Shown here: in pieces, positions 28,629 to 35,026 of the stretch
Numbering within the stretch: position 1 is the stretch's first letter
How the letters are laid out: each line of letters begins with the position of its first letter
Source of the DNA: Candidatus Eiseniibacteriota bacterium
GTDB taxonomy: Bacteria > Eisenbacteria > RBG-16-71-46 > CAIMUX01 > VGJL01
Length of the DNA: 64,000 nt
Direction of reading: 5' to 3'
NCBI GenBank assembly: GCA_041946735.1
Contig: JBHGAY010000005.1
Location: forward strand, 96,001-160,000
Notes under the pieces: model-generated
Told to the model about the DNA's origin: nothing
What the model saw: the letters and a program-made list of their open reading frames with translations, nothing else
The model's database searches: none
Made by a program: the position numbers and the translations under genes

Positions 28629-30673
28629 GCGAAGAACGGCCAGGAAGGAGCGAAGAACGGCCAGGAAGGAGCGAAGCCGGGCTGCCCCGCTCCGCTCCGG
28701 CGCTCGACCGCCACGGCGCGCCCCTCCGCGCGATCGTGCTCGCCGCGGGATTCGGCACGCGGATGCTCCCGCTCACACGCACGATGCCGAAGGCGCTCCT
28801 CCCGGTCGCCGGCCGGCCGCTGCTCGAATGGACGCTGCGCCTCCTCGCCCGTTCCGGCATCGACGAGGCCGTCGTGAACGCTCACCATCATGCCGCGGCG
28901 ATCCGCGGCTGGATCGAGCAACGGCGCGGCGATCCGCGGCTCCCCCGCGTGGACGTCGTCGTCGAGGAGCCGGAGATCCTCGGTTCGGCGGGCGGCATCG
29001 CAAACGCCGCCGCTCTCGGGCTGCTGCAGTCCGACCCGATCGTCGTCGCGAACTCCGACCAGATCCTCCGCGTCGATCTCCGCGCGGTCCTCGCCCGGCA
29101 CCTGGAGCGCGGGGCGATCGCGACGCTCGTCTGCTCTCCGCATCCGCTGCTGCGCCAGGTCCGAGTCGCCGGCGAGCGCGTGACGGAGATCCTTCCCTAT
29201 CCGATGCCGACCGGCCAGTCGCTCTACAGCTTCACCGGGATCTGGCTCCTCGCGCGCGAAGGGCTCGAGGAGCTGCCCCGTGGCCGCTTCGAGGAGATCG
29301 GACCGCACTGGCGGCGATGGGTTGCGGCCGATCGCGTCGCGGCCGTCGTCGTGAAGGATGCGCCGTTCCGGGAAGCGGGGACCCCCGAGGCCTGGCTCGA
29401 GGTCGAGCGCGCCGTCGGCCGGCTTCGCGAGGAGCCGCCGGCGATCGAGGAATCGATCGTCCTGCCCGGAGCGAGCGTCGCTCCGGGAGCGCGCGTGCGT
29501 CGCTCGATCCTCGGTCCGGACGCCGTCCTGTCGGCGGGCGAGCAATGCTACCGGCGGATCGTGGCGGCCGGCGAGTCGCGCGCGCTGCGCGTGCTTTCGC
29601 GCGACGAAGAGGAGGCGCTGCGTGCGGTGCTCGAACGGTCGCGGGGGAAGCTGCCGGTCGTCGCGCGAACGCCGGCGTTCGGGATCCGCCTGCTCGCCGG
29701 GGACGGATCGAACCGGCGCTTCGCGCGCCTGCTCTTCGAGCGCGGGAGCCTGGTCGCCATCTTGAATCCACCGGGGGGGGCGCCGCCGGCTTCGGTCTAT
29801 CCGCATCGCGAGACCGCGGGCGGTCCCGACGAGAACGACAGCTACCTCTACGTGCAGCGGTTCCTCGCCGCGCGAGGCGTGCGCGTGCCGGCGATCCATG
29901 CGTTCGATCGCGAGAGCGGGACGATCCTGCTCGAGGATCTCGGCGATCGCCTACTGCTCGAGGAGATCCAAGGCCGGGACGAGGAGGCGCTGAAGGCACA
30001 CTACCGGCAAGCGCTCGAGATGCTCGAGCGGATGCAGGCGCCGGCGCCGCCGGCGTTCGACGCGGCGCAGACGTGGAACGTCGCGTACGACGAGGCGTTC
30101 GTGCTGCGCTTCGAGGCCGGGTATTTCCATCGGGAAATGGTCGAGTCGATCGCGGGACTCGCCGTCCCGTTCTCCGAGATGGAGGGGATCTACCGGCGCA
30201 TCGCGCAGCGGTCGCTGGCAGGCGCTCCGCGGGTCGCGATGCACCGCGATTTCCAGTCCCGCAACCTGATGATCGTCGAAGGCGGTCTCGCCCTTCTCGA
30301 CTTGCAGGGGATGCGTCTCGGGCCGCCGGAGTACGACCTCGCCTCGCTCCTCCTCGATCCGTATGCCGATCTGCCGGCGCGGCTGCGCGAGGAGCTGCTC
30401 GAGGAGGCGATCGCCGCGAGCGCGGGGCGGATCGATCGCGGCCGGTTCGTCGCTTCGGGGATCGACCGGATGATGCAGGCGCTCGGCGCCTACGCGTATC
30501 TAGGCGGGCGTCTCGGCAAGCCGGGATTCCTCGAGCACGCGCCGGTCGCGCTGCGGCGCCTGCGGGAGCTGGCCGAGGAGGCGTCGCTCCCGGAGATGGC
30601 GGGACTGGCCGACCGCGTCACCGAGGCGCTCACGCGCCGCGCGCACCGGGAGCACCGCGCCGAGCCGGCTTAG
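28625..30673 (+). CDS. Fusion of sugar-1-phosphate nucleotidyltransferase (MurU-like) and anomeric sugar kinase (AmgK-like)
   Basis: N-half LAAGFGTRM.PLT...PKAL, GSAGGI, NSD; C-half LAGDGSNRRF.R, LEDLGD, HRDFQSRNLM, LDLQG..GP.EYDLASLL.D; ATGA overlap with namZ. Confidence 0.85.
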   Translation: MSEERPGRSEERPGRSEAGLPRSAPALDRHGAPLRAIVLAAGFGTRMLPLTRTMPKALLPVAGRPLLEWTLRLLARSGIDEAVVNAHHHAAAIRGWIEQRRGDPRLPRVDVVVEEPEILGSAGGIANAAALGLLQSDPIVVANSDQILRVDLRAVLARHLERGAIATLVCSPHPLLRQVRVAGERVTEILPYPMPTGQSLYSFTGIWLLAREGLEELPRGRFEEIGPHWRRWVAADRVAAVVVKDAPFREAGTPEAWLEVERAVGRLREEPPAIEESIVLPGASVAPGARVRRSILGPDAVLSAGEQCYRRIVAAGESRALRVLSRDEEEALRAVLERSRGKLPVVARTPAFGIRLLAGDGSNRRFARLLFERGSLVAILNPPGGAPPASVYPHRETAGGPDENDSYLYVQRFLAARGVRVPAIHAFDRESGTILLEDLGDRLLLEEIQGRDEEALKAHYRQALEMLERMQAPAPPAFDAAQTWNVAYDEAFVLRFEAGYFHREMVESIAGLAVPFSEMEGIYRRIAQRSLAGAPRVAMHRDFQSRNLMIVEGGLALLDLQGMRLGPPEYDLASLLLDPYADLPARLREELLEEAIAASAGRIDRGRFVASGIDRMMQALGAYAYLGGRLGKPGFLEHAPVALRRLRELAEEASLPEMAGLADRVTEALTRRAHREHRAEPA

Positions 30674-32466
30674 CGGCGGAGGGAGATCTTGCGGGTCGTC
30701 TCGATCCCGCCGGCGGCCCCCCGGACGCGGACGAAGTAGATCCCGCTCGGCACCGGGTTGCCCGCCTCGTTCTCGCCGCGCCAGACGAAGGCGAGCGTTC
30801 CGCCGGCGGCGACCGGACCAGCGGTCGCAGCGAGCGAGCGCACGAGCCGCCCGCTTGCGTCGATGACCTCGACGTCCGCGGACCGCCCGTCTCCCACCGC
30901 CGCCGCAGCCCCCGCCGCCATCTCCAGCCGGAGCGTTACTTCGCCGGCGAACGGGTTCGGGTAGGCGGCGAGGCGGACCGGCGGGCGCAGCGTCGCGTCC
31001 GCCACCGAGGCCCCGGAGTCCTGTCGATAGCCGATCGAGAGCAGGTCCTGCTGCGTGATCCAGGTGTAGCCGTACCCGACCGCGTAGAGGTCGCCGAGCG
31101 GGCTTGCGGCGATCGCGGAAACCTCGTCGGTCAGGCCGTCCCCCGAATCCCGGATGGACGACCAGGCGATCGAGCCGTCTGCCGGGTCGAAGCCGACGAG
31201 GGTCGCGTCCCAACCGGTGGCGGCGGCGCTGCTGAAGCCGCCCGCAACGATCTCCCCGGATGCCGCCCCGGAGACGGCGATCGCGGACGCGCCGTCGTAG
31301 TCGTGCGCGGGCGCATCCCACAGGGACCGCCACTGCAGCTCGCCATCGCCACAGGCGAACTTGCACACGAGGAAGTCGCCGCTCTGCACGCCTGCCACGA
31401 GGAGGTTGCCGTCGCGATCGCTCGCGGCGGCGCGCGGATTGTCGGAGACGGCCCCAGGTGCGCCGTAGCGGGACTGCCAGACGACCTCGCCATCCGACGC
31501 ATCGAAGCGGAAGGCGACCACGTCGAAGAGGGTGGCCGGCTCCCACATCCGGTTCGTGACGAGAGCGTCGTCGTCCGAGCAGAGGAGGATCCATCCGGCC
31601 CGCTCGCCGATGTTGTTGACGGCCCCGGGCAGGACCTTCTGCCAGATCGTCGTGCCGTCGGCCGAGTCCAGCTTCGCCGTGCAGAAATCGGCGTTGCCGT
31701 CCGCGCGTCCGAAGATGCCGGTCAGGACGGGATCGCCGTCGGATCCGACGGCGATCGCCCAGGCTGCGTCGTCCTGATGGTCGGCGCCGCCGAGGAGCCT
31801 GGTCCAGACGACGTGCCCGTCGGCGGCGTCGAGCTTCATCGCGACGACGTCGTCCAGTTCCGATTCGCCGTTGTACATGCGGCCGGTCAGGAAGACGTTG
31901 CCGCCGGAGTCGCAGGCGATCGCGTAGACGGATTCGTTCGTTCCGGTGGGGCTGGCGTAGTGCTGCAACCAGAGAGACTCTCCGGTCTCACCGTCCCGCT
32001 TCAGGACGATGATGTCGTCGCCGTGCCCTCACCCGACGCAGCCGCGCACGTATCCGCCGACGAGCACGTCGCCGAACGGGTCGAGGACGATCGAGGTGAG
32101 CGCCATGTCGTTGCCGTCGGAGGCGAGGTACTCGGCCAGCCAGAGAAGGCGGCCGTCCTGGCGCGCGAGCCGGCGTACGGACATCGCCGAACCGTTGATG
32201 CCATCGCGCGTCTCGCCCCCGACGATCAGGTCGCCGTTGGGGGCGGCGACGGCGGCGGTCGCGTAGTCGGAGTAGGCGCCTCCGGCGTCGTAGAGGTCCA
32301 GCCACTGCTCGGACGGCTCGGCGGCCGCGGCGCGGGAAAGGGGGAGGGCGAGGACGAGGGCAAGGGCAGCGGCCAAGGCGCAGATGCGGATTGCGGCAGA
32401 GGCGGAAGCGGAAGCGGTGGTGGCGGCGGTGGCGACGACGGTGGCGGGACCGGCGGGTGTCTTCAT
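30670..32466 (-). CDS. Secreted 8-bladed beta-propeller protein with C-terminal FlgD-Ig/Por-like domain; in-frame TGA at codon 146 (candidate selenocysteine, CxxU)
   Basis: ORFs 32029..32466 and 30670..31968 share one frame and are separated only by TGA 32029-32031 (GGYVRGCVG*GHGDDIIVLKRD); signal peptide; 8 W..Y/L....D.A.AI..D..G...V.G blades; tail YPNPF...IDASGRLVRSL...WRGENEAG.PVPSGIYFVR. Confidence 0.8.
31988..32012 (-). promoter_or_regulatory. Candidate bacterial SECIS hairpin
   Basis: mRNA UCAUCGUCCU-GAAGC-GGGACGGUGA: 10-bp stem (2 G-U pairs), 5-nt loop starting with G, loop 26 nt after the UGA. Confidence 0.6.
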
Positions 32467-32562
32467 CGGATCTCCTGCGGCGGCCTTCGAATGCGTCTCG
32501 TCTGCCGTGTGCGGCGGCCGGTCGAACCGCGCCGGTCGAACGGCGTCGATCGAATCGTGTCG

Positions 32563-32571
32563 ATTGTAGCA
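32563..32571 (-). promoter_or_regulatory. Extended -10 element TGCTACAAT upstream of the beta-propeller gene
   Basis: TGn-TACAAT about 97 nt upstream of ATG 32466; SD GGAG present. Confidence 0.45.
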
Positions 32572-32767
32572 GGTCGGGACGGCGCCCGGCGACCTCGCGC
32601 TGGCTCGCCCGCTTCGAATGCGAGCGGAGGCGAGCCCCTTCCTGGTGCCTTCCGGACGGTGGGCGGGTATTCTCCCGACGGCGGCCGGGCGCGCCGGGTC
32701 AACCGGGCGCACCGGATCGAAGAGGCGCGCGCTGGCAGATCCGGCCCGGACAAGAGGAGGAGGAGGC

Positions 32768-33148
32768 ATGCCGGCAAGGGCGAAGGCGATCGACCGGACG
32801 ACGGGAAACGTGGCGCGGGCGGCGAAAGCAGCGAGCGCTATCTCGATCCTGATGCTCGCCGCGTTCTTGATCGGAGAACGGGCGAGCTTCTCCGCCCTCA
32901 CCTGGAAGGACTGGCTGGGCCTCGCCCTGTTCCCGGCCGGCGTCGTCGCCGGAATGGGGATCGCGTGGTGGCGGGAGATCCTGGGAGGCGCCATAGCCTG
33001 CGGGTCGCTCCTCGCCTTCTATCTGATCCACGGGTTGTGGCTGAGCGGCCGGCTCCCGAACGGGATCTTCTTCGTCCTGTTCGCCTCGCCGGGATTGCTG
33101 TTTCTCGTCAACGGCCTGATCCGCTACCGGAGAAGCCGGGGAAGGTAG
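32768..33148 (+). CDS. Small membrane protein of unknown function (about 4 TM)
   Basis: Four hydrophobic segments; GGAGGAGG before ATG 32768. Confidence 0.75.
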   Translation: MPARAKAIDRTTGNVARAAKAASAISILMLAAFLIGERASFSALTWKDWLGLALFPAGVVAGMGIAWWREILGGAIACGSLLAFYLIHGLWLSGRLPNGIFFVLFASPGLLFLVNGLIRYRRSRGR

Positions 33149-33154
33149 AAGCAG

Positions 33155-35026
33155 GTGCCCGGCCGCTCCTCGCGCCTGCGCCGTCTTCCGTCCGGGCTGC
33201 TGCCCGCCGTGCTCGCGCTCTCGCTGCTCGTGCTCGGCGCGCTCGCCCTCCGGCTCTGGGGGATCCGCTACGGGCTGCCCCACGTCTATCACACCGATGA
33301 GATCTTCGAGGTGAAGCGGGCGCTGAAGCTGGGGGCGGGGCAGTTCGACTTCCACCGTGCGTTCAAGGGGGGGCTCTACTACCTTCTCTTCATGGAGTAC
33401 GCGGTCTACTACGCGTGGCTCCGTCTCGGCGGCTCGATCCGCTCGAGCTACGACTTCCTCGTACTGTTCTTCCGCGATCCGACCGGATTCTGGATGATCG
33501 GGCGCTCCACGGTCGCGGTCATCGGCGCTGCGACGGCCGTCCCCGTGTTCCTTCTCGCGCGCCGCCTCGCCGGGCGGACGATCGCGGGGATCGCCGCCGC
33601 GCTCTTCCTCGCGATGAGCTTCGATCACGTCTGGTCGTCGCACTTCACGACGGTCGACGTGCCGATGGTGGCGCTGCTCGCGGTCGCGTTCCTCTTCCTC
33701 GAGCGGGCGGCTCACGAGAACGGAATGCGCGCGATCCTCGTCGCCTCGATCTTCGCGGCCTTGGCGACCGCCACGAAGCTCCCGGCGATCGTCTCCCTCG
33801 TGCCGCTGGCGATCGTCTCGCTCGCGCGGCCCGCGGCCGTTTCGCTCGCGCGGCCGGCCACGCGGCCGGCGGCCGTTTCGCGCCTGCGCCGGCTCGCCCT
33901 GGCGGCGCTCGTCTTCGCGGTCGTGACGGCGATCGTCAACCCGGGTTTCTATCCGGAGATCCTGCGTCTCGCCGGCAGCCGGCTCGGCCTCGCCACGCCC
34001 CCGCCGCAGCCGCCCGACGATCCCTATCCCTTGCGGACCGAGAACGTGTGGATCTACTACCTCGTCTCGATCGTGCATTCACTCGGGCTCCCGATCGTCG
34101 CGCTCTCCGCCGGCGGGGCGGTCCTCGCAATTCGCCGGCGGACGATGATCGACGTCTCGCTCCTCGCCTTCGCCGTGGCGCTCTATCTCTTCGTCTGTCT
34201 GCCCTGGTCGGAGGACTTGATCTATCCGCGCTACACGCTGCCGATCCAGCTCGTGCTCGTTCTCTTCGCCGGATGGTTCGTGTCGTGGCTGCTCCAATGG
34301 AGCTTCCTCGTTCGCCGGCAGAAACTCGCCGCCCCCGCCGCGGCCGTCTTGCTGGGGCTCGTCGCGCTTCCGCCGGCGATCGCCTCTCTGCGCTACGACG
34401 CGGGGGCGAGCCGTCCCGATAGCCGGACCATCGCGCGGCAGTGGATCGTGGAGCACCTTCCGCCCGAGTCGCGAATCCTGATCGAGGGCCGTGGCTATCA
34501 GACCTCCACCGGGACGGTCCCGCTCGTCAACCGTCCGGAGAACATCGAAGCCCTCGTCGCACGCTTTCGGTCTGCGGATGCGCGATGGAGCGGGAAAGCG
34601 GCCGGCGGGGGAGAGGACTCCGGCTCCGCCGGCTACGGCGCCGGCCCCGGTTCCGGCTCCGACTCCTACGCTCCGCTCAAGGATCGATTCCACCGGGCCG
34701 CCGTCGACGCTGCCGCCTCGACCCGGAGCTTCGACCTGATCCTCTTCGGCACCGAGACGCTTTCCTACCGGCGCCTGTCGGAGTACATCGAAGACGGAGC
34801 CGACTACGTCGTGATCGAAAAGGACCGGATGGAGAAGATGCGCGAGCCGGGCAACGCGGCTCGCTTCCCCGAAGCCGCCCGCTTTTATGAGGATGTCGCG
34901 AGCAACGGCGATCTCGAGCTTATGCGGGAGTTCGTGCCATCTGCCGGCGGTCTGGGCCCCGTGCTTCGGCTCTACCAGGTGCTGCGCGGGGACCCCGACG
35001 GCGCCGGATCACCAGGCCGCCGGTAG
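33155..35026 (+). CDS. GT-C fold glycosyltransferase (ArnT/PMT family)
   Basis: LRLWGI.YGLP...HTDE, SHFTTVDVP, ATATKLP, PRYTLP, DSRT.A..WI; multi-TM with a C-terminal soluble domain. Confidence 0.85.
   Translation: MPGRSSRLRRLPSGLLPAVLALSLLVLGALALRLWGIRYGLPHVYHTDEIFEVKRALKLGAGQFDFHRAFKGGLYYLLFMEYAVYYAWLRLGGSIRSSYDFLVLFFRDPTGFWMIGRSTVAVIGAATAVPVFLLARRLAGRTIAGIAAALFLAMSFDHVWSSHFTTVDVPMVALLAVAFLFLERAAHENGMRAILVASIFAALATATKLPAIVSLVPLAIVSLARPAAVSLARPATRPAAVSRLRRLALAALVFAVVTAIVNPGFYPEILRLAGSRLGLATPPPQPPDDPYPLRTENVWIYYLVSIVHSLGLPIVALSAGGAVLAIRRRTMIDVSLLAFAVALYLFVCLPWSEDLIYPRYTLPIQLVLVLFAGWFVSWLLQWSFLVRRQKLAAPAAAVLLGLVALPPAIASLRYDAGASRPDSRTIARQWIVEHLPPESRILIEGRGYQTSTGTVPLVNRPENIEALVARFRSADARWSGKAAGGGEDSGSAGYGAGPGSGSDSYAPLKDRFHRAAVDAAASTRSFDLILFGTETLSYRRLSEYIEDGADYVVIEKDRMEKMREPGNAARFPEAARFYEDVASNGDLELMREFVPSAGGLGPVLRLYQVLRGDPDGAGSPGRR

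Follow-up and report, generated by a model that had tools for sequence, protein, structure and literature searches.

An in-frame TGA in a beta-propeller gene of an Eisenbacteria genome very probably encodes selenocysteine in a predicted exported protein with a type IX sorting tail

Does the single TGA that divides a long reading frame on contig JBHGAY010000005.1 of a Candidatus Eiseniibacteriota bacterium (assembly GCA_041946735.1) separate two genes, or does it encode selenocysteine (Sec)? We analysed a stretch of 64,000 nucleotides (nt) of this contig (positions 96,001 to 160,000 of the forward strand, referred to hereafter as the window, with all positions counted from its first letter), which has a G+C content of about 70% throughout. 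A single frame on the minus strand runs from an ATG at 32466-32464 to a TAA at 30672-30670, and the one in-frame stop is a TGA at 32031-32029, which is codon 146. With this TGA decoded as Sec (U), the 598 codons that precede the TAA give a product of 598 amino acids in which the site reads GGYVRG-C143-V-G-U146-GHGDDIIVLKRDGETGESLW (GGYVRG-C-V-G-TGA-GHGDD in the frame, with GHGDDIIVLK after U146). Under translation table 11 the same frame appears as two open reading frames (ORFs), 32029..32994 upstream and 30670..31968 downstream, the latter coding for 432 amino acids. A preliminary description of the locus had proposed that a single TGA splits one frame for an eight-bladed propeller, and this was confirmed: read through, the frame gives all 598 residues and eight blades in the predicted structure. 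We conclude that 30670..32466 (minus strand) is very probably one intact gene for an exported selenoprotein, and the explanation developed below is, taken as a whole, likely to be the best one. That the TGA is a Sec codon is well supported by comparative evidence, from which we infer Sec insertion itself.

One line of evidence for this conclusion is the conservation of the codon. Searches of 41 related genomes, translated in six frames with stops read through, returned ten strong places including the window's own (E 0 to 3.9e-118, 40-49% identity), each with exactly one TGA; the next tier of matches (E 1e-33 and weaker, about 30% identity) contained no TGA at all. Orthologues were present in 10 of 35 genomes of the order and in 12 of 206 genomes of the phylum, and all 12 carried exactly one TGA. 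A species-representative collection yielded 44 loci, made up of 41 orthologues (E 1e-150 to 7e-79) and three weak matches that lack the motif. Every one of the 41 orthologous loci contained C-x-x-TGA-x-x-G-D-[DE], and they are built alike: each begins with a start codon, which is ATG in all but one, followed by a hydrophobic N-terminus, carries U at residue 115-158 and is 544-596 amino acids long, one of these loci being truncated at a contig end.

In a protein alignment of 44 rows, in which the orthologues are 35-49% identical to the window's protein, both Cys143 (codon TGC, 32038..32040, minus strand) and U146 (32029..32031, minus strand) were invariant and lay inside the most conserved block of the protein. 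Frame and TGA were the same throughout, the codon in the U146 column being TGA in 44 of 44 aligned genes, always three residues after the invariant Cys, as the preliminary description had anticipated. D150 and D151 were invariant and near-invariant, respectively, and position 148 was occupied by H, Q, E, S or L. As would be expected of a gene that depends on SelB and a selenocysteine insertion sequence (SECIS), coding conservation extends to both sides of the in-frame UGA. The orthologue records are labelled Eisenbacteria/Eiseniibacteriota, Krumholzibacteriota, Latescibacterota, 'Fibrobacteraceae' and, in one case, 'Gemmatimonadetes', with 23 rows unlabelled; these names are the submitters' own and not verified taxonomy. 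A quick tree, used for the taxon labels alone, clustered the window's protein with the Eisenbacteria-labelled rows.

A gene broken by a nonsense mutation or by an assembly or sequencing error, or two genes that happen to share a frame, would also present as an interrupted frame, and standard gene callers do split it. Such accidents do not explain a TGA that occupies the same column in every aligned gene at this level of divergence, with strong conservation on both sides. The codon was also found in an independent assembly, in which the TGA and the region 31755-32466 show zero differences (run X2, record 10). A word-index search of public proteins gave as its closest matches fragments of 432 (the window's own), 424, 423 and 394 amino acids. 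A profile search covered 1.84 billion representatives; of its best 150 matches, 15 were single-stretch matches of 375-432 amino acids that start at profile positions 131-185, the others were long multi-propeller repeat proteins, and none was a single-stretch full-length protein of 500-650 amino acids. The starts assigned to the fragments differ (for example MLKLDG..., MTGEVLW... and MQHYAS...), and the TTG start of the downstream 432-residue ORF falls within a beta-strand. Because gene callers split every member, the public sets contain nothing but fragments of the downstream part. The putative signal peptide lies before the TGA and the secretion tail after it, so that the product of the downstream ORF ends in the tail yet lacks a signal peptide. 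On its own this product would have no route across the inner membrane and would be one and a half blades short, which speaks for one gene; we regard a broken gene or a pair of genes as extremely improbable.

The genome, which is 94.8% complete, encodes the machinery that Sec insertion requires. The selA, selB, selD and tRNA-Sec genes that the preliminary description had proposed to search for were all present: selA, selB and selD, at 478.9, 349.1 and 388 bits respectively, and the tRNA-Sec, at 72.1 bits, all scored above their curated cut-offs, and ARAGORN also identified the tRNA as tRNA-SeC with anticodon TCA. The selD gene (L010, G000:C2:108941-109867) itself contains an in-frame TGA (...AACAG-U-ASK...), and about 20 nt past it lies a hairpin whose 8-bp stem is capped by a GGA triloop. 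Across the phylum selA was found in 182 of 206 genomes, with the unpublished genome G072 included in the count, and in 11 of the 12 carriers of the orthologue, the exception being an 81%-complete genome. Because selA is so common in the phylum, co-occurrence with the Sec trait does not discriminate. TGA is otherwise a normal stop codon in these organisms. In the whole genome (4.9 Mb) only 30 TGAs have at least 50 open codons and a coding-type pattern of G+C at third codon positions on both sides, most of these being same-frame adjacent genes, and TGA is the terminal stop in 4 of the 12 orthologues of the phylum.

The RNA that follows the UGA is itself conserved. Over the 70 nt from the UGA on, identity per column was 87% among 41 distinct sequences, for proteins that are no more similar to the window's than stated above. 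Two adjacent hairpins occupy this region. The first (31989..32011, minus strand; alignment columns 21-43) was folded by RNAalifold with columns 21-26 paired to 38-43, an additional pair 28-37 and column 27 bulged, and its 8-nt loop starts 25 nt after the UGA. The second (31967..31987, minus strand; columns 45-65) carries a G(G/U)(U/C) triloop on a stem of 9 bp, 50 nt past the UGA. Paired cells amounted to 92.1% in helix 1 and 98.6% in the helix of hairpin 2; for the two-hairpin structure together the figure was 95.6%, compared with at most 56.4% when the partners were slid by 1-3 columns. Six pairs had changed on both sides. Pair 22-42 is GC in 19 sequences, AU in 16 and GU in 4, while 2 leave it unpaired. 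On none of five measures did any of 500 shuffles attain the observed value, but the slide control is the stronger test since, as the tool itself warns, related sequences can exceed shuffles in the absence of structure. Both hairpins are backed by covariation.

Codon choice points to the same part of the RNA. Within codons U+15 to U+19, Thr was ACC in 38 of 38 cases and Glu was GAG in 42 of 42. The Gly codon of hairpin 2 was GGG or GGA in all 44 genes, compared with 28.7% of Gly codons in these genes; Val was GTT in 36 of 37 (10.5% gene-wide) and Leu was CTC in 42 of 42 (32% gene-wide). When 108 sliding windows of 22 codons were compared, the eight with the greatest synonymous constraint all began 6-15 codons past U, and the codons of the gene whose synonymous choice is most restricted fall within hairpin 2. 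The loops of other likely selenoprotein genes in this genome are of the GGU or GUG type, and hairpin 2 resembles these and that of selD. We picture a bipartite insertion element, in which SelB would more likely bind hairpin 2, with hairpin 1 acting as a folded spacer or as a co-determinant. No Rfam family matched within 31800-32200 at E up to 1. A further pairing seen by eye, of UGAGGCC (columns 1-7) with GGUCYCA (columns 62-68), was rejected: column 6 varies opposite an invariant G in column 63 with no compensation, and the pairing competes with hairpin 2.

What kind of protein would read-through produce? The propeller was recognised by PQQ_2 (PF13360, 47.1 bits, cut-off 27.6) and marginally by SBBP (PF06739, 20.7 bits, cut-off 20.5). 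At the C-terminus FlgD_ig (PF13860) scored 35.8 bits (cut-off 27), the NCBIfam model TIGR04183 for the type A sorting domain of the type IX secretion system (T9SS) was marginal (24.7 bits, cut-off 23), and Pfam Por_Secre_tail (PF18962) stayed under its cut-off (19.6 bits, cut-off 27). An AlphaFold model built from the 44-sequence alignment (mean predicted local distance difference test score 88.1, predicted template modelling score 0.77) contained a hydrophobic N-terminal helix at residues 20-43, 32 strands over residues 52-481 and a C-terminal beta-sandwich at 497-596. In the model the 32 strands form eight four-stranded blades of a closed propeller, the first strand completing blade 8. The predicted propeller (residues 52-481) is encoded by 31024..32313 and the sorting domain (residues 497-598) by 30673..30978, both on the minus strand. 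The preliminary description had divided the propeller at the TGA, with two blades before it and six after; the division itself stands, but the TGA lies inside blade 2, and the part before it comprises only some one and a half blades.

Export is predicted at both ends of the protein. A putative signal peptide of about residues 1-48 (32323..32466, minus strand), ending AAAA-EP, was assigned by inspection from the predicted helix and from the N-termini of the orthologues, which show, likewise by inspection, a short basic stretch and a hydrophobic, Ala-rich stretch ahead of a near-invariant A49 and P51. The genome encodes T9SS machinery, including a PorU sortase (596 bits, cut-off 420) and SprA above its cut-off, and the FlgD_ig/T9SS-like tail of the protein has matches at more than 100 further sites in the genome, which points to a very large tail-dependent secretome. 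Taken together, the signal peptide, the tail and the T9SS genes suggest the route of export.

As previously suggested, the TGA falls in an inter-strand loop. In the model Cys143 and U146 both lie between strands 134-141 and 151-157, which by the repeat pattern are strands 2 and 3 of the second blade, in a lengthened, family-specific loop G-C-x-G-U-G-x-G-D-D. DSSP assigned residues 143 and 148 as bridge residues around a four-residue turn, so that the side chains of Cys143 and U146 can be close. Paralogous propeller repeats (about 25-30% identity) have no Cys at either position, variable residues at the site and a loop that is usually some three residues shorter; this makes the CxxU loop an insertion peculiar to the family, set in a blade of the SBBP type. 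Variable residues at positions 143 and 146 were confined to these paralogous repeats.

On this basis we propose that SelB with Sec-tRNA(Sec) would be recruited at UGA 146 by the two adjacent conserved hairpins, that Sec would be inserted and that translation would then continue to the TAA. The N-terminal signal peptide would take the product across the inner membrane, and the C-terminal type IX sorting domain would take it across the outer membrane and probably attach it to the cell surface. There Cys143 and Sec146 may form a reversible selenenyl-sulfide, serving as a redox centre that acts on an extracellular or periplasmic substrate held by the propeller face. For this last step, the chemistry, we would put the chances at about even.

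Several observations weigh against this account. The published model of the bacterial SECIS (bSECIS) specifies a loop of 3-9 nt, a stem of 4-16 bp, a G in the first two loop positions and a distance of 16-37 nt between UGA and loop, and neither hairpin matches it completely. The spacing of hairpin 1 fits, but only 24 of 41 sequences have G as the second base of its loop, against 15 with C and 2 with T; the loop of hairpin 2 starts with G[G/U] in all 41 (GGT in 34, GTT in 5, GTC in 2) at a distance that is outside the range of the model. Neither the best 150 profile matches of the 1.84 billion representatives nor 21 word-index matches included a Cys-containing orthologue, contrary to the earlier expectation that some homologues would have CxxC, and the usual argument from Sec/Cys pairs is thus unavailable; C-x-x-C followed by G-x-G-D-[DE] was likewise found in 0 of 170 other fetched proteins. 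When ORFs of at least 90 amino acids were clustered at 42 loci, no conserved neighbour appeared that would hint at a substrate. Finally, the loop would lie on the usual ligand-binding ('top') face of the propeller as judged from strand order alone.

The partial fit of the hairpins to the bSECIS model has a bearing on another explanation, in which the UGA is a conserved regulated stop or is read through independently of Sec. The hairpins would then modulate termination, giving a short secreted N-terminal peptide together with, by near-cognate decoding, a full-length protein that has Trp, Cys or Arg at position 146, and conserved RNA structures after a stop can indeed also promote Sec-independent read-through. 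Under that explanation, however, TGG, TGC/TGT or CGA would be expected in some of the 44 lineages and is fixed in none. The selA gene is present in 11 of the 12 carriers in the phylum, the twelfth genome being 81% complete. Hairpin 2, with its G[G/U]N loop and G-rich stem, is also similar to the hairpin of the genome's own selD (GGA triloop, 8-bp stem), and the 145-residue fragment that would end at the UGA comprises one and a half blades and cannot form a propeller. We judge Sec-independent read-through or regulated termination very unlikely, and decoding of the UGA as Sec remains the preferred explanation.

If Sec is inserted, the Cys-Sec loop could instead bind a metal or metalloid (Hg, Cu, As, or selenium and sulfur species) or serve as a covalent capture site, which would make the product a surface binding protein. 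The loop offers many possible ligands (C, U, the position that holds H, Q, E or S, D150 and D151), several of the bacterial selenoproteins in Table 1 of a recent review (PMC13188914) are predicted metal binders, and binding proteins, BamB and lectins for example, are found among the nearest solved folds. Position 148 (H, Q, E, S or L), on the other hand, is not kept as a ligand, and no metal-transport or resistance gene was found among conserved neighbours at the 42 loci. No present data separate the redox and the metal-binding readings; we consider metal binding or capture possible but rather unlikely and prefer the selenenyl-sulfide redox centre.

Comparison with solved structures was consistent with the propeller assignment and silent on function. 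The best Foldseek matches to the model were generic propellers: CylK (7RON, 7FH6; E 8e-16, template modelling (TM) score about 0.49), BamB (3PRW; TM score normalised to the target about 0.66-0.69) and PorZ (5M11). These share 12-22% identity with the window's protein and none is a selenoprotein, so the likeness is that of the general propeller fold. A tetrathionate hydrolase at Foldseek rank 34 was not taken as a functional lead.

Is the family already known? Table 1 of PMC13188914 (May 2026) lists 119 families and subfamilies of selenoproteins from prokaryotes, and among those 119 there is no family of the propeller, PQQ-like, SBBP or T9SS-tailed kind. The terms propeller, PQQ, FlgD, secreted/secret and signal peptide are absent from the main texts of PMC13188914 and of deep-Sep, and the first four of these are absent from the main text of BSepDB, whose family table (Table S2) lies outside this comparison; the word T9SS is absent from the main text of PMC13188914. 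A literature search found nothing that links selenocysteine with Eisenbacteria and nothing relevant on selenoproteins with type IX secretion or with the other phylum names. The window's protein matched no selenoprotein-specific NCBIfam model. The earlier statement that no family of this architecture has been described thus agrees with NCBIfam, the 119-family table and the literature search, the BSepDB family table again standing outside; the locus is very probably a genuine, mis-annotated selenoprotein gene whose family we did not find described.

The nearest known systems differ from it in several ways. Bacterial selenoproteins with CxxU (SelW-like, AhpD-like, GrdA and DUF1858, as given in PMC13188914) have in common with it the UGA three residues after a Cys, RNA structure downstream within the ORF and the sel genes. 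Compared with those listed there, the window's protein is an eight-bladed propeller rather than a thioredoxin-like or other small redox fold, is predicted to be exported, has no Cys orthologue among the matches described above and has a two-hairpin RNA downstream that agrees only partly with the consensus model. An outer-membrane beta-barrel receptor with CxxU is alike in location and motif but is a barrel, not a propeller with a sorting tail, and gave no NCBIfam match. Sec-free T9SS cargo of the SBBP/PQQ-like type (PF06739, PF13360; for example the paralogue G000:C63:200-1840) shares the repeat type and the order of signal peptide, propeller and tail at 27-31% identity, yet it has no TGA, no Cys at either position and a loop that is usually about three residues shorter. 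The 'Omp28-related selenoprotein' NF045500 ('Hypothetical protein GOS_C' in Table 1 of PMC13188914) is likewise a selenoprotein of the cell envelope, but its site is a thioredoxin-like UxxC in an Omp28-like domain, and it did not match the window's protein at E up to 0.1.

Distant relatives of NF045500 do occur elsewhere in this genome, outside the window. L102 (G000:C23:230-2428, FGYVS-U-PYC) and L101 (G000:C18:15226-16263, ADYFG-U-PPC) are exported UxxC proteins with signal peptides and T9SS/FlgD_ig tails; L102 reached 60 bits against NF045500 (cut-off 200), and relatives carry several copies of the L102/L101 family per genome, with one TGA in most copies. These proteins are a precedent for T9SS-sorted selenoproteins in the phylum. 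L103 (G000:C38:125-2062), also outside the window, encodes 646 amino acids with a signal peptide and a Por_Secre_tail; its in-frame TGA lies in ...TTVGC-U-GESP..., and a strong hairpin whose loop is GGUG comes after it. In the 41 related genomes 25 of 26 matches at E up to 1e-25 carry one TGA, and no selenoprotein model of NCBIfam matches; L103 is possibly another uncatalogued family of T9SS-sorted selenoproteins.

Most of the catalogued bacterial selenoproteins are redox proteins, thioredoxin-like or of other kinds, and Cys relatives exist for nearly all of them. The 119 families in Table 1 of PMC13188914 include no propeller, which is the fold predicted here. The predicted sorting by the T9SS implies that the selenium chemistry would act outside the cell, and the lack of a Cys version among the matches suggests that sulfur is no substitute. 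A consensus SECIS model would overlook or wrongly score the two-hairpin signal, and the family is a natural test of how far from the UGA a SelB-binding hairpin can lie. Since gene callers split the members, and since the same genome also contains at least one further candidate, L103, the selenoproteomes of these soil and sediment phyla are probably under-counted. A wider reading can be offered tentatively, with somewhat less than even confidence. In it the gene would found a large, uncatalogued surface selenoproteome, in which several unrelated type IX cargoes that need Sec are exported by Eisenbacteria, Krumholzibacteriota and neighbouring candidate phyla; the propeller family would depend obligately on Sec and have no Cys form; and the loop bound by SelB would be that of hairpin 2, 50 nt from the UGA and thus far beyond the accepted 16-37 nt, with hairpin 1 as a folded spacer. 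If this wider reading is true, selenium chemistry takes place outside the bacterial cell and the search rules for SECIS elements systematically miss such genes.

The clustering at 42 loci yielded no operon partner: the only widely shared clusters were the two halves of the gene itself, together with their shadow on the antisense strand, and the best other cluster was present at 8 loci. Two further candidates lie outside the window. L098 (G000:C1:81082-82476) is a lipoprotein-like protein of the UshA type in which APCG-U-HASQ occurs together with a multihaem cytochrome c554 domain at the C-terminus, and it scored 209 bits against NF041198 (UshA_like_PCGU), under the cut-off of 275. L104 (G000:C45:59552-60331), on the same contig as the window, has a TGA in ...VEGSGIS-U-SSANYDW... 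within a frame of 260 amino acids that matches no Pfam or NCBIfam model, and may be a selenoprotein or two adjacent genes.

Within the window, the ATG of the propeller gene is preceded at 5 nt by a Shine-Dalgarno-like AGGAG (32472..32476, minus strand), and a purine-rich stretch of the GGAG type stands before the ATG in most full-length orthologues. The upstream neighbour on the opposite strand (33155-35026, plus strand) encodes a membrane protein of 623 amino acids with a PMT_2 (dolichyl-phosphate-mannose-type glycosyltransferase) domain. Downstream, a fused NTP_transferase/APH-type kinase gene (28700-30673, plus strand) converges on the 3' end of the selenoprotein gene, and the stop codons of the two genes overlap by a few bases at 30670-30673.

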